Shown: piece after piece, positions 42,967-50,405 of the stretch
Numbering within the stretch: the first letter of the stretch is position 1
How the letters are laid out: each line of letters starts with the position of its first letter
Origin: Rhina ancylostomus
Taxonomy: Eukaryota
Reading direction: 5' to 3'
DNA: 64,000 nucleotides
Assembly (NCBI GenBank): GCA_030265395.1
Contig: JARFYF010000017.1
Span: 22,767,566 to 22,831,565, forward strand
The notes under the pieces: model-generated
Database searches by the model: none
What the model was told of the DNA's origin: nothing
What the model saw: the letters and a program-made list of their open reading frames with translations, nothing else
Translations under genes and position numbers: made by a program

Positions 42967-43871
42967 GTATGTCGTGGGTGAGGGCGCGGATAATCCGGCT
43001 CCATCGTAGGGTTTCGTTGGGTCATCCATAGATGCACCAATGTGCAGAGAAATGGGGAAGGACGGAGCCTCGATATCCGTGACTATTTCAAACGAAAAAT
43101 GCGGTTAAAGCGAGTGGGCCGGGCTTTCCGTGCGCCGGGGCCTAAGGTGGAGGCAGCGGACAGGTTATGCGGATCATGTGTCGGTTCCTCCGGAGGGTGA
43201 GCGCTCTCCGCTGCTGCTCCCCCCGCCTCTGCCGGTGTCCCCTCCGCCGCTGCTGGCCTCCCTCCGCCGCCGGACCCGCTGCACCGTCTGATGGGCGGCA
43301 TGTTGCCGGCTGCCAGGGTTGTGGCGAGGAGTTGCAGAATAGTTCTTGTTCCCTGGAAGCGTTGAGCAGGTTAGGCAGCATTCTCCCATGGAGAACCTTC
43401 ACATTTCGGGTCAATAACCTTCCATCAGAACGGTTCACCGAGACGCTTGTTCTGTTTTTGGAGCACTTGTCCCGTTCGGATTGACTGCTGAGTCGATATG
43501 TTGGTTTTCTCCGCCTTGTTTCTCGTTTGTTCCCCGCGGTGCACACTGCGTCCGAAAGCAGCGAGAGTAATTGCTGTTCTTTTGGGAGGTTCAACAAAAT
43601 GGATGAAGAGCCGAGCAGTTTCATTATATCAGTCCGTCCGTAAAAGCTTTCAGCGTATCTTTCTTATTTTCGGATGCCCATTCATCTGCAGAGGTGGCAG
43701 AGGGGTTTTATGGTTTTCTAATATACGTGCAAAACATCTCTGCCGGCCTCTTAATTTTATTTTGTTTAAATCTTCTGAACAGTAGTTTGGTCATACAGTA
43801 GCTGCATTATATCAGATCAGTTATTTGTTTTTCACATTTTACCTGTTTTAGGTGGTTTCACCGTTCAATAA

Positions 43872-43988
<117 letters not shown>

Positions 43989-44285
43989 TAACACTTTTCC
44001 ATAAAAGGAAGTTTTTTTTTTAAGGAAGAGAGAAGTAGCTAGGACAATATTTGGTTAGATGTAAGAAGGTTTATAGATATGTGTTCCTAAGAACTTGTGC
44101 AGCAGCCACCCTTGAGTTTGGGGCAGAGCAGTGGCATCGAGTACACATGTAGATCTGCCTTTTTACCTGCAGATGACTGAAAAAAAATTCCAGAATAATT
44201 TGTAATTGAGAAAGCATTTAAAATCAAAGGTTGCTTACGACAGTGATCGGCCCTGATGTGAGAGCCGGCCATTTATCCTTCCTAG

Positions 44286-44347
44286 GCTGTTTCTTGAGGT
44301 TGATGACTAGTGCCTGATGGGGCCGATCTGGGACACAATGTTGTGTG
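44286..44347 (+). other. putative 62-nt poison (PTC) cassette exon in RPL13 intron 2
   Basis: Branch-like CCCTGAT 44251-44257, acceptor TTTATCCTTCCTAG|G, donor GTG|GTGGGT, in-frame TAG at 44308-44310. Embedded in a stem-loop. Confidence 0.5.
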
Positions 44348-46271
44348 GTGGGTACTTGCAAGCTGTTATTCTAGACATCCCCTAGTACTACCTATTCAGT
44401 GCTTTGAAGTGTCTGCTATAGGCAGTCCATGACTTGATGTACAAAGTGCAAGGATTACTGCTGCTGTGAACTTTATGCCAGATTTGAGGGCTTGAGTCGC
44501 AAGGATTCTTATATTGAATGTACAAAGTAGAAGCAGGAGTGGGCTATTCAGCAGCTTGCACCTGCTCCACTGTTCAATTTGATAGCTATGCAGTGCTACT
44601 AACTCAATCTTCCTTGATATGCAATCTGTCTTGAATACAGGTGCTCCCTGGGTTACGAATATTGATTGTTCATGTGTCTGAGCTCCTGTAAATATAACTA
44701 AATTCAAAGGAGAACCTATCTTTTGGGGGGGGGGGGGGGAGGAGGTGGTTATGTTTACCTGTCACCTCCCTGCAGTAGTAAGACACTGGCTGCCAGTTTC
44801 ACTGCGGGAAACTGACGAGCAATCGCTTCTATTGATCCATGTGCAATGATATTCTTGAACAACGTAACATCCATGATACTTCAAGCCCATCAAAACCAAC
44901 TGTTGAGTGTGAGACATCCTGATTCTGTACCATTTTAACTAGGCAGGGAAAGGCAATAAATAAGTATTCACATTAATTGACCCTCACCAACACCATTCAT
45001 TACAATATTGTGGAGTATACTTGTATCGATTATTTTTGTGTATTTCCTGACTTGTGGACAAAGTAGTCTATGGATGTCTGTAAAAATGGAAAATGCTCAT
45101 AACTTGGGGGCAGTCTGTACTCAGCAACTCTATAAACTCTCCTGGTAGAGAATTCCAAATAGTTTCTTCTCATCTTAGTCCTGAAAGGTGCACTGAATGA
45201 AATGGTTAATTCCACAATTCACATCTGCTTTCCAAGGTCTTGAGAATTTTTTTTGATGGGGATTGCTCTTGTAGAATGGAACAGTTTGGCAGAGGACCTT
45301 TGTTTTGCACATGTCGGGTGCAATATCTTAAGCTATGGTGACTAAGCTGATGATGAGTTAGAATTTGGCCTCTGAATGTGTATATTGTTTGTCTCCCATA
45401 TCTTTGATTTATTTTTTTGTACTGAATTCTATTCTAGAGCAGAGTTGATACAAATTGAACAGTTTCTCATTTGTGCTGACCAGTTCCATGTTAGCATGAA
45501 GCCTGTTGAGTTGAGGTGTAGTATGGATCCAAGGACGGTCGAAACTTCTGGGTGATACAGTGATAGCGGAGAGGTATGATGGGTTAGGGAAGGGACCCTA
45601 CAAGGACGACAGCCAGTCAGTGAGGTGATGACAGTCTTCACTCCTTTGGCACGTTGGTTGTCTGGTTTTTCTAGGGTCACGTATCTACCTCAAGTCTAGC
45701 ATAATCTGTTTTCTCTTTTTCTGTTTGACTCTCCCCCTGCATTACCTTATCTGTTGCTGAAACCCTTGTGTGGCTTTTGTCCATTCTACTGTCTCATATT
45801 GCCCTCCTACATTGTTCACTCCATAAACTTGAGAGCATCTAAAATGTTGACCTAGTTCTAAGTAGCACCAAGTCCTTCTCCAGATATTAGTTTAGAGGAA
45901 ATTTTGGCTTATTTAGTACTAAGTGTCAGTGAAACATTGTGCCAGTTTTGAAAAAGCTATTATTTCAGGGATGTAATGGGGTATGGCACTAAATATTGCC
46001 ATTGTTCAAATTTTGAGGTGATACTTAAGGACAGCGTATAGGTGTGAAATCGGGGAACCTTGGAGTTCTGTGCAGGATTGGTGAATGGAATGATAGCCAG
46101 GAAATTACTTGAACCAGTGTGTAAAAATAGGGCCAGTTGAATGTGGTTCTACCTGGCTGGGAGGTGTTAGAAATTTAAGAGAATGTAGTCAGCAATACCA
46201 AAGGCTGCAGAAAGGACAGGGAGAAGAAAAGCAGTGAATTTACTATTTTCCTGGTCACTGGGTCATGTATT

Positions 46272-46357
46272 TGCGCAGTTAGATGATGACAATTTCTCCG
46301 GAATCTCTGTATTTGAATGATGAATACAGTTGAACCCTTTCTGCTGATAACTGTGCA
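46272..46357 (+). ncRNA. SNORD68: C/D box snoRNA, SNORD68 (HBII-202) paralog A, RPL13 intron 2
   Basis: Box C ATGATGA 46283-46289, guide TCTCCGGAATC, C' TGATGA, GAACCCTTT, box D CTGA 46344-46347. 10-bp terminal stem TGCGCAGTTA/TAACTGTGCA with one G-U. Confidence 0.9.
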
Positions 46358-46504
46358 CTGCCCCAGGTGTTTTTATTTAAATTCTCTTAACAAAATAAGG
46401 TAGTTTGAAATTTGTATTTCTTATAATTTTGTTACTACAATGAACTCTAACCTTGTGTCTCTCTGGGGGGGGGTGGAGGGAGGAGGAGAAGGAAGGAATG
46501 CCTC

Positions 46505-47290
46505 TAGTTTATTGTCCAAATTCACAAGTACATGTATGCACAGGTTTAATGAAAAACTTAATTGCAGTAGCATTCTCAAAAAATCTTTTTTTTTACAAGG
46601 AACACAATTAGAACAAAAACAAAGTCAATTTTACTGCAAAGTGACCATAGTGTTGCTTTACTGAGGTAGTGATTAGGATTGTGCTGGTTGGTTCAAGAAC
46701 CAAGTGGTTGAAGGGAAGTGGCTGTTCTCAAAACTGGTGGTCAGTGATGTCAGGATGGTAGCAGCAAGAAGATGGCCTGGCTCAGATGGTGGGGATCTTT
46801 GGATGTAGTCTTCTTGAGGTAGTGCGTCCCTTAGATACCATTGGTGGGGAGGGACATGCCTGTGATGTATTGGGTTGAGTCCAAAGCTGCTTGCATTCCT
46901 GTGCATTGGAATTACAGTACCAGACCATGATGCAACCAGTCTGGATACTTTCAACAGTACATCTGTAGAAGTTTTAGAATATTTGGTGACAAACCAAACC
47001 TTGTCATCAAGTGTAACAGCTACAGAGAAAGTGCAGTGCACTACTCCTTTTTAAAAAAAAGCGCAAAGATGTTGGTGCACTTTCCTTGTGATTGTGTTCC
47101 TTGAACCTGGTGTTGGGCCAGGACAGGACATTTGCTATGTTAATACCTAGGAATTTAAAGCTGGTGACTCCCTCCACCACTGACCCCTTTTATTTCCCCC
47201 CCCCCCCCCCCCAATGTTACTGGTGCATTTTCACCCTCCTTTCTCTTCCTGAGGTCAACAATCAGCTCTTTCGTATTACTGACATTGAGC
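46505..47290 (-). mobile_element. Rex1/L2-like LINE fragment (related subfamily) in RPL13 intron 2
   Basis: Reverse strand resembles the RT 3' region (FKFLGIN, ..FENSHFPSTT.FLNQ). Confidence 0.75.
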
Positions 47291-47506
47291 TAGGTCAGAA
47301 GATGCTACTTTAAAACTAGTGTTTTGATTTAATATAGGTAATGGGTGCTGATTGTAACAGCAAAATAACCACTTTTCAAGCAATTGTTAACCAAGTCACT
47401 TAGCATTGGTGTATAAATCTACTGTTTATTAAAATGACTGGGTTCTCGTTTTGCTTTGAGCAGTCTTAGCTGCATTGTAAAAGAATTTTCTAACATCTGT
47501 TAACAG

Positions 47507-47648
47507 ACGGAAGGCACGGCAAGCTAAAGCACGTCGCATTGCTCCACGCCCAGTTGCTGGCCCCCTTCGACCAGTTGTCAGATGTCCCACTATTAGGTAT
47601 CACACTAAAGTACGTGCTGGACGAGGATTCAGCCTGGAAGAATTAAAG
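47507..47648 (+). CDS. RPL13: RPL13 exon 3 (142 nt)
   Basis: taacag| [47 protein letters not shown] |gtagct. Confidence 0.98.
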
Positions 47649-48026
47649 GTAGCTTTTTTAAACCTATATTGGCATCGGAAGATTGAACTGATCTGAAATA
47701 GCAAGTGAATAAAGGGGGAGGGGATGGATTTCCACTTGGTTTTTGTTGATAGTTATTTGTGTAGAGGGTTCTTGAAGGGGAAACGGTACAGCAGATTCAT
47801 TGAGTTAGTGCATGTAAATAAAAGAATGGACTAATAGAGATCTGAAATTGAATTAATGCAGATGTGTTCATTTGGCTGGAATTCTTTAGAAAATGAGCTG
47901 TCAATTGTGTTCAAATAGTTTTAAGTACCTCCATGATGGGGTCTTTTTCAACTTTTTCTAACTTCACTATTTACATGAGCTTTGCTCTCCATCTTCTAAT
48001 AGAGTAATTTATTTTGGCCATAATAG

Positions 48027-48200
48027 GCAGCAGGCATTAACAGGAGAGTGGCACGTACTATTGGTATTGCAGTTGACTATAGACGCCGCAACAAGTCAAC
48101 TGAGTCTATTCAGTGTAATGTTCAACGTCTGAAGGAATATCGCTCCAAGCTAATCATCTTCCCTAGGAAGGCTTCTGCACCCAAGAAGGGAGATTCTACA
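48027..48200 (+). CDS. RPL13: RPL13 exon 4 (174 nt)
   Basis: taatag| [58 protein letters not shown] |gtaagt. Confidence 0.98.
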
Positions 48201-49295
48201 GTAAGTGTACATATAAAGATTTTTGGAACGTAACTCTGAAGTTCTGGGGAACAGATGAAGTTATTGATTTGTATTTAAAAACTTCCTAGAATAATAAATG
48301 TGTATGGACACTCCAAATGGTGTAGTAATTATAATTTTAGATTTTTAAAACTATTGTATAAATTGTTTTCCTTTTGAAGATGTTGACTTGTTTTGTTTAA
48401 TTCATTCAGTGTTCTGCTCGCACTGTTAGTTGTATCTTTAGGGACTCTGCAAGTTTGGCAGTTTAGCAGCTATGACCCTAGGTTCTGGATATTGTATTGA
48501 ATTGCACATTAATCTCTAAGTTTCTGATGGTTTTGGGTGTCAGTGGTTGAAACTTGCTGCATTTTAAGGTAATGTTCTCTTGCTTGAGTTAATGGGGTAT
48601 TATTTTATTTGCATTATTATTAAGGAAAGCATGATGGACAGGTAAAAGCTTGGATTTCTATATAACTTTGTGACTTCATTCATTTTTGAGGTGCTTAACA
48701 AAATGCCTTACAAATCATACACATTTTAATGTAGTATTTAACTGGTGGTTGAGTTCTTGGATATAGCAGTGTGCAGAAGTTAGTCCCTTGCTTGTAGGTG
48801 ATGAGTGAGATGGGAAAGTTACTGAGTGGTACATTATGAAATAGGTGGCAAAGTTGGAATAGGAAGAAATGAAGCAGTCCTAACTTAGCATGAGATGTGT
48901 ATTAATGGATTAGATAGNNNNNNNNNNAACAGTGGAAACTCGTTTGTAACTACTTATGGATTGAAAAAGGTTATTTAGAGTCAGTGTCAGAAGAGATGGG
49001 CTGGATAAGAGTTTGATTTTTGAAGTATTTAGGGACCTTGATAAAGGAAGATATGATTTCAAACTGTTAGAATTCTTACCTAGAGAAAACCTACTGGAAA
49101 TGTGAAATTATTTCCAAATTATTTACATAAACAGAAAATATCAAGCAGGTGGTTATACCTTTTTAGAAGCATTTATTTGAGTGAAATTAGTTTTGAAGAT
49201 AAAAGAAAATGTACATGCTGATCAGTATCTCGTAAAGAAGCAATATATTCTTTTGGGGCTCTAAGTGCTAGGCCTTGTTTTTAATGTCATTTTAC

Positions 49296-49379
49296 CACAG
49301 TCAAATGATGATATTTTCTCCGGAATCTCTGTACATCTTTGATGAATTTCATTGAACCCTTTTCCATCTGATGACTGTG
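49296..49379 (+). ncRNA. SNORD68: C/D box snoRNA, SNORD68 paralog B, RPL13 intron 4
   Basis: Box C ATGATGA 49305-49311; guides TCTCCGGAATC (antisense to 18S GAUUCCGGAGA) and GAACCCTTTTCCAT (antisense to 28S UGGAGAAGGGUUC); box D CTGA 49368-49371; stem CACAGTCA/TGACTGTG; 81 nt from the 3' splice site. Confidence 0.95.
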
Positions 49380-49452
49380 AAGAGGTGTTGATTGATTTAA
49401 ATTCTTTGCTTTTGTTTATTGGCATTTGTTAATGCAGTTTTCTTTTCCATAG

Positions 49453-49509
49453 GCTGAAGAAATTCAAGTGGCAACTCAGCTAACTGGACCAGTCATGCCA
49501 ATCAAGAAT
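49453..49509 (+). CDS. RPL13: RPL13 exon 5 (57 nt)
   Basis: ttccatag| AEEIQVATQLTGPVMPIKN |gtgagt. Confidence 0.98.
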
Positions 49510-50225
49510 GTGAGTAATTATTTTTTTTAAATGCTCAAGTTTGGACTGATCATTGCCCATGGGTGAGTCTCACCAAGGCCTGAATGGACTGAGGGAGTGC
49601 TCTCAAGATGCTGTCAAGGGTGTATTGCCTTTCCAACTGAGTTTGCTCTCAAGTGGATGTTTCCTTTCTAAATCTAGATTGTAAAGAGGAGGAAGGCTTA
49701 TCTTGATCTTTTTTGTGGGAACTTGTGGGTCTAATTATTTAGATGTAGTTTCCCTCCATTATAATGGTGGCAATATTTAAATATCTTACTGGCTGTGGAC
49801 CTAAGGATGTTCTTGATTGATTTAGCCTATGTTAACAAATGTTATCTATTGTAAAAAAAAATGCACTAATAGTTATAAAACAGTTAATTCTAGTTATTAT
49901 CACTTTAGTGTTTGCTTGTATGAAAGTGCTGAGGTGTCCTGAACATCAGGTGCTCTACCTCTGGGAATTTTGCCTCTACCAGATGGAAGAGGCAAAAGAA
50001 ATCTTTAGTTGAAGCAGAGTATTCAGGGGAAATTGATCTGGCAGGCTTGAACTGGAAGTTGAACAATTAAGCCTGCAATTATTACTGCAATATTCTCAGT
50101 TTGGAGTCTGTGTAAATGTGATTTGGGTACTTTACATTGGCACTTCATTATTCAAGACCTATCCATGTGCTGCTTGTTTTTTTTTTGTTGTATAATTGCA
50201 AACTTGTATGTGCAGTATATTTTAA

Positions 50226-50405
<180 letters not shown>

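Follow-up and report, generated by a model that had tools for sequence, protein, structure and literature searches.

RPL22L1, the gene of a large-subunit ribosomal protein (RP), carries a poison-acceptor hairpin that is read by eL22. Autoregulation by unproductive splicing coupled to nonsense-mediated decay (NMD) has also been described for RPL3, RPL12 and RPL10A (PMC4937301). In NMD-null mouse data, clear accumulation was reported for RPL3 only among the junctions examined, and the same study, whose table may bear on RPL13, reported 14 alternatively spliced RP introns (PMC4114680). Few vertebrate RP genes are known to regulate themselves through unproductive splicing, and no such case was found for RPL13. 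The gene does not appear in the accessible part of a review's list of self-regulating RPs (PMC8623629), in the main text of a study on snoRNA hosts and NMD (PMC4233243), or among the cis-acting snoRNA switches in the available sections of a further report (PMC10324135); the supplements of PMC2653536 gave no match, and a sno-lncRNA described for RPL13A concerns a different gene (PMC4234469). Within this literature, which includes the available parts of PMC7668251, PMC6984369, PMC7038934 and PMC3349704, no report of unproductive RPL13 splicing or of the element discussed here was found; the human RPL13 isoform annotation lay outside this scope and may already list such a junction.

The locus considered here lies on the forward strand of a 64-kb window, the whole stretch of ray DNA that was analyzed. 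Three of four tested exon peptides (exons 2, 3 and 4, but not exon 6) matched the Pfam family Ribosomal_L13e, identifying the gene as RPL13; the peptide of exon 3 matches a ray eL13 at 100% identity, which places the source among cartilaginous fishes and probably rays, and all three members of the ray eL13 cluster are 211 aa long. Two predicted eL13 proteins (P0001 and P0003; 152 and 164 aa), in which all or most of exon 4 is missing, may be exon-skipping isoforms or annotation errors. Exon 2 (43852..43981, with the ATG at 43878) ends in phase 2, intron 2 spans 43982-47506, and exon 3 occupies 47507..47648. The gene houses two SNORD68 copies (RF00324): copy a in intron 2 (box C to box D at 46284..46347; Rfam span 46286-46363; 48.6 bits) and copy b in intron 4 (49306..49371; Rfam span 49309-49389; 68.6 bits). 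Copy a keeps a 13-bp 18S match and has a D guide with no 28S match; copy b keeps a 14-bp 28S match, and at the 18S site its D' guide reaches no uninterrupted match of 10 bp. The two copies may therefore divide the work between 18S and 28S.

In the same intron as copy a, a patch of 118 bases (44236-44353) had been proposed, in a sequence-only reading, to hold a structured poison exon in non-repetitive, CpG-retaining DNA. The patch is indeed single-copy: it has one genome match at E≤10, and contig depth over it is flat in sequencing runs X1 and X2, unlike over nearby repeats, which rules out a dispersed repeat. Four CpGs are present, versus 0.4-0.7 per 100 nt in the flanking intron; three of the four differ in the related animal of run X2, so that CpG retention is a weak argument. 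Rfam returned no family for the patch, just three weak unrelated matches at E≤10. Exon 2 has a single match in the genome, with no sign of retrocopies that might carry an extra exon.

The predicted splice signals are all present at the positions proposed. A branch-point-like CCCTGAT (A44256), whose CCTGAT core overlaps, within 44252..44259, an atypical box C, TGATGT (44254-44259), and is unchanged in X2, precedes a pyrimidine tract and AG (44272..44285; AG at 44284-5), and a candidate donor GTG/GTGGGT (44345..44353; GT at 44348-9) closes a would-be exon of 62 nt (44286..44347). Read in phase 2 from exon 2, this exon runs into a TAG, and stops occur in all three frames; the patch, as read from its letters, thus contains alternative splice signals that would add a premature stop. 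When scored with approximate vertebrate weight matrices, the acceptor reaches 6.6, higher than four of the five real RPL13 acceptors (0.4, 0.5, 4.4, 4.9 and 8.8), and the donor 2.4, versus 2.3-4.5 for real RPL13 donors. The acceptors of exons 3 (47507) and 4 (48027) have very low scores (0.5 and 0.4), below that of the cryptic acceptor. Acceptors scoring as high as 6.6 number 18 on the forward and 13 on the reverse strand. Combinations of a branch point, an acceptor and a donor that equal or exceed this one occur four times on the forward strand of the 64 kb (once as the real exon 5 and once as the patch) and twice on the antisense strand, from which about 0.1-0.2 chance sets are expected across the RPL13 introns. 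The splice signals by themselves are thus near chance. In X2, the change G44347A replaces the -1 G of the donor and lowers its score from 2.4 to -0.6, a level reached by 37 of 248 intron-2 GTs. Because of this loss and the roughly two equal signal sets per 64 kb of antisense strand, the cassette exon in its proposed form was not borne out, and the 3' end given for the extra exon is tentative. X1 and X2 are runs of unrecorded kind that behave like genomic DNA, with no joints over 43800-44800.

Two competing folds are predicted for the patch. In tight folding windows it forms a three-way junction, H1, composed of helices P1, P2 and P3. P1 is the helix previously described as having 11 bp; its arms lie where they had been placed (44245..44254 with 44319-44328), and it folds as 10 bp (nine Watson-Crick pairs and a U.G), with the eleventh pair, G.U, outside the minimum free energy (MFE) structure. 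An extension by ACGACA/TGTTGT, also previously suggested, is unstable (pair probability 0.29-0.51 in two tight windows and ≤0.04 in the other seven of nine), and the weak outer helix P0 (44236..44242 with 44339-44345), part of the MFE, stays at ≤0.51 in all nine windows. P2 (44260..44295; 44260-70 with 44285-95) is an inner hairpin with the pyrimidine tract as its loop, and P3 (44297..44315; 44297-300 with 44312-15) is a small hairpin common to both folds whose loop holds a box C'-like TGATGA (44301-44306). In the rival fold, the long hairpin H2 (44280..44332) carries the AG at its base and spans the stretch in common with a bird-like intron discussed below. A G-rich strand (44319..44328) has two alternative partners, 44245-54 in P1 and the strand behind the AG in H2. 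P1 dominates in three of nine folding windows (0.97-0.99), H2, which buries the AG, in five (0.71-0.93), taking over in the wider ones, and one window is mixed; P3 has a probability of 0.56-0.98 in all nine. In H1, P1 covers the 5' flank of the branch point alone and leaves A44256 itself unpaired, which makes gating more likely to act on the AG, via H2. The patch is nevertheless well folded: its 84-nt core has a z of -2.16, with 7 of 200 shuffles folding as well, and only three of 609 windows over 43982-50243, all at one poly-G run, fold lower.

Comparison with the close relative bears on these folds. Over the patch, run X1 shows no difference except for a gap of 3 bases between contigs. Run X2, which is about 97% identical, shows 28 listed differences in 43800-44800, five of which lie in the 118-base patch. 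The substitution rate there, 5/118 (4.2%), compares with 8/254 (3.1%) and 12/447 (2.7%) in the flanks; conservation of the patch in X2 is not above that of its flanks. Four of the five changes fall in stems of H1, a fold computed before the X2 data were examined; three pairs are kept, one of them through a double change, and none is broken. The H1 pairs at G44239A and C44248T survive, and C44266T together with G44289A converts the P2 pair C44266-G44289 to U-A, a compensatory double change with a probability of 0.014 given three CpG changes. Random change sets break no pair with a probability of 0.50. Set against the wider-window fold that contains H2, the X2 changes break two pairs, and G44289A breaks an H2 pair at a base in common with the bird-like intron. 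The structure of the patch looks to be under selection.

A more distant comparison was obtained by scanning metagenome contigs with a SNORD68 motif, which yielded three RPL13 loci, only one of which, L016, likely an amniote and bird-like in sequence, includes intron 2. A viral scan with this motif for orthologous introns gave no loci, and a single bacterial match, like eight viral matches to a motif common to ray and L016, is attributed to chance. Another contig (L017) is a chimera in which bacterial flagellin-like genes (identified by eye) are fused to an intron and an exon of fish rpl13. In a teleost-like rpl13 intron 5 (L018, ~2620-2650), intron sequence ahead of SNORD68 is complementary to the snoRNA at its two ends and folds back over boxes C and D, resembling the snoRNA-intron duplexes described in the available sections of PMC10324135.

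Intron 2 of L016 is 425 nt long and contains, upstream of SNORD68, two blocks around a small hairpin that match 44280-44332 (about 50 bases). This is the best local match of the patch, with p values of 0.003-0.17 depending on the test. Under +2/-2 scoring, the stricter scheme and the second one tried, 23, 69 and 56 of 4000 shuffles scored as high (p 0.006-0.017), as did 0 of 562 real L016 windows and 6 of 2038 window tiles; the match jointly with at least five shared MFE pairs was attained by 1-2 of 4000 shuffles. Under +2/-1.5 scoring the match is weaker, with 279 and 355 of 3000 shuffles as high (p 0.09-0.12), 63 of 1500 and 172 of 1000 in further shuffles (p 0.04-0.17), and 3 of 562 and 6 of 1019 real windows. 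H2 is the fold of each stretch alone (z -3.94 for L016 and -1.10 for the ray), and across both stretches 24 of 26 cells pair, with no double change. P3, at 0.98 in all six L016 windows, appears by eye with its GG and CC strands swapped between the two. RNAalifold applied to an untouched MAFFT alignment recovered P1 with 9/9 pairs kept, including one double and three single changes; a second aligner kept 6/9, and imposing P1 on L016 carries a penalty of 4.7 kcal/mol. A covariance model made from one of the two sequences did not detect the other, in either direction, and the two-sequence model R3 found its own two inputs only, below E 0.76, in 93,590 bases. Evidence for conservation of the element between orthologous introns is thus mixed, given the spread of p values, the failure of single-sequence models and the weakening of the donor in X2. 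From the sequence resemblance, we lean moderately toward homology between the L016 stretch and the ray patch.

Both sequences also have a CTGA branch-like word 23-30 nt before the AG at the hairpin base, although the L016 AG is displaced by one base and weak (0.2). If this L016 AG were used through to exon 3, a premature stop is predicted; one of three tried L016 donors would instead give an in-frame exon without a stop. The L016 read-through peptide occurs in none of 31 candidate annotated proteins, which is weak evidence.

What the patch does can be read in several ways, and the one that competes most directly is that of an orphan or decaying box C/D snoRNA, closed by P1 and cut from the intron like its SNORD68 neighbors. 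The sequence-only reading had mentioned such an RNA in passing with a degenerate box C, GTGAGAG; TGATGT at 44254-44259 reads better, and the case is stronger than then presented. Boxes occur in the order C (TGATGT, 44254; deviant, as CTGATGT), D' (CTGT at 44287 or TTGA at 44294), C' (TGATGA, 44301) and D (CTGA, 44314..44317), and P1 would close them from outside. When the 64 kb were scanned for boxes C and D with at least 8 bp of stem and a perfect inner TGATGA, using thresholds set after the patch had been seen, this layout appeared only in SNORD68 copies a and b and the patch on the forward strand and nowhere on the reverse; 0.05 are expected per strand (40 Markov shuffles). The C-to-D span is 64 nt, as in copy a, and X2 has no change in boxes C, C' and D. 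A canonical C/D kink-turn has a purine before box C, a 3-nt bulge and a stem adjoining box D; the patch departs from this geometry, with a pyrimidine before box C, a T as the last base of box C and a P1 register that leaves no 3-nt bulge. In addition, P2, which appears selected, buries the D' guide, P3 takes two box D bases, and G44289A in X2 strikes either the D' CTGT or the fifth base before TTGA. In L016, boxes C' and D are absent from the matching stretch, with no CTGA at the place that corresponds to 44314..44317. Related annotations exist elsewhere: Xenopus rpl13 has three SNORD68-type entries, including an extra C/D entry, snoRD68x, known from coordinates alone (PMC6984369, in its available part), and zebrafish rpl13 has three annotated SNORD68-type RNAs and a predicted 59-nt C/D RNA, novelsnoRNA165, as the 5'-most (PMC11880993 and PMC6954239, likewise). 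Expression of the latter is very low, at 0.69 and 0.12 in two of 11 stages (same sources), which counts against the parallel. The predicted 59-nt zebrafish RNA, at chr7:67469134-67469192 (GRCz11), lies 2.2 kb before the first annotated SNORD68, a spacing like that of the ray patch, as judged from coordinates alone (PMC11880993, available part).

Guide potential speaks against this snoRNA as well. Among 18S, the 5.8S region, 28S model positions 24-2337, U2 and U6, no guide of at least 10 nt with a Watson-Crick pair at D+5 was found; in the 3' third of 28S, the search extended to six exact words in the alignments of one paper. The D' guides are matched by 28/60 and 38/60 shuffles; the D guide is matched by 1/60 but has its fifth base mismatched, and two SNORD68b segments are matched by 0/60. 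Beyond the boxes, no similarity to SNORD68 was detected (803/2000 and 1682/2000 shuffles as high), and the patch does not score above the RF00324 gathering threshold or contain its conserved guides. Other rRNA-directed readings were rejected: a SNORD13-like pairing of the pyrimidine tract to the 18S 3' end, with one bulge, is equaled by 28/60 shuffles, a sense match over 11 nt between the G-rich arm and 18S is expected about 0.2 times by chance, no sense match longer than 11 nt to the rRNA searched was found, and model R3 gave nothing below E 3.4 in rDNA. An H/ACA reading fails, with the ACA 38 nt from the pocket. The rDNA match itself (G000:C7:38232420-38238298; L002, L003, L006-L009) is irregular, with a full 18S bearing an insertion and a gap, a second, diverged 18S 3' part, and a 28S that ends near model position 2337. 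We regard the orphan or decaying snoRNA as less likely than not, only somewhat behind the reading favored below. Less probable is that the patch is a neutral, GC-rich piece of intron, with the helix, the splice words, the boxes and the likeness to the bird-like intron being chance features selected in hindsight. Its X2 substitution rate at or above the flanks, the loss of three of four CpGs, the even chance of random change sets sparing every pair, the failure of single-sequence models on L016, a whole-region z of -1.54 and the 45 perfect 9-bp stems with 40-120 loops in the window would all fit such a patch. Three partly independent signals weigh against it, namely the compensatory pair, the C/D layout and the L016 match with shared fold, all somewhat post hoc. 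Least probable is a combination in which the C/D motif forms on the pre-mRNA and switches the poison acceptor off: since A44256 is also the A of the box C G.A pair, binding of Snu13 or a snoRNP would mask the branch point. The overlap of branch point and box C, the C/D layout, the placement of boxes C and D opposite each other in H1 and the precedents of SNORD86 (NOP56) and SNORD2 (PMC10324135, available sections) suggest this arrangement; it requires both halves, each unproven, and faces the missing boxes in L016, an atypical kink-turn register and the absence of any logic by which snoRNP proteins would control eL13.

We tentatively favor, with confidence short of even, a single-copy structured cis-element that sits on a cryptic 3' splice site of RPL13 intron 2 and gates use of that acceptor, because the only evidence from a more distant relative favors the AG-proximal hairpin over the boxes. 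In this model, the two predicted folds would interconvert and set how often the acceptor is used. In H1, the upstream arm would hold the G-rich strand, and the branch A and the pyrimidine tract would lie in loops, as would the A of the AG; in H2, the G-rich strand would pair with sequence at the AG and behind it, burying the acceptor. A ligand or co-transcriptional folding may set the H1/H2 ratio, and free eL13 as that ligand is a guess from precedent. Use of the acceptor would yield stop-containing transcripts destined for NMD. In the compact bird-like intron, an exon that begins after the AG and runs on into exon 3 would keep the snoRNA sequence and introduce a stop; the ray would need a donor further downstream, and the proposed one is weak, and weaker still in X2. 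The earlier model of a cassette exon under eL13 control is a plausible hypothesis. A broader conjecture, which we consider improbable, is that RPL13 intron 2 houses an old two-state RNA switch common to rays and amniotes, in which the G-rich strand opens or buries the poison acceptor and free eL13 tips the balance, and in which, in rays, the branch point serves at the same time as the box C of a C/D motif and couples the switch to snoRNP levels. In any event, the patch is a real, single-copy and probably selected structure with several candidate functions.

The consequences differ between these readings. A conserved switch would represent a new feedback loop in a gene that delivers SNORD68 and could uncouple snoRNA from protein output; an old switch tipped by eL13 would be an undescribed vertebrate RP feedback loop; and an orphan C/D RNA would be a modest addition to the non-mammalian snoRNA set. 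New here are the L016 resemblance, the emphasis on an acceptor hairpin with two folds, and the C/D alternative raised in weight.

Among known systems, RPL22L1 is similar by description: this large-subunit protein gene also has, in its intron 2, a hairpin next to a cryptic 3' splice site. The patch shares with SNORD68/HBII-202 (RF00324) its host intron, box set and C-to-D span; it differs in having no Rfam match, no similarity between boxes, no guide for 18S-U428 or 28S-A2388 and an atypical box C. Like SNORD86-NOP56 and SNORD2-EIF4A2, it combines a C/D-like sequence with alternative folds over a branch point or splice site and possible routing to NMD; those are established snoRNAs with experimental support, whereas in the patch box C itself lies over the branch point and the boxes are missing from the bird-like stretch (PMC10324135, available sections). 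With RPL10A and its element L10ARE, RPL3 and RPL12, it has in common an RP gene, an intronic element possibly kept between distant vertebrates, and an alternative site that would add a premature stop (PMC4937301, available part). L10ARE lies between two 5' splice sites and binds its own protein, whereas the RPL13 patch, known from sequence alone, lies at a 3' splice site (same source).
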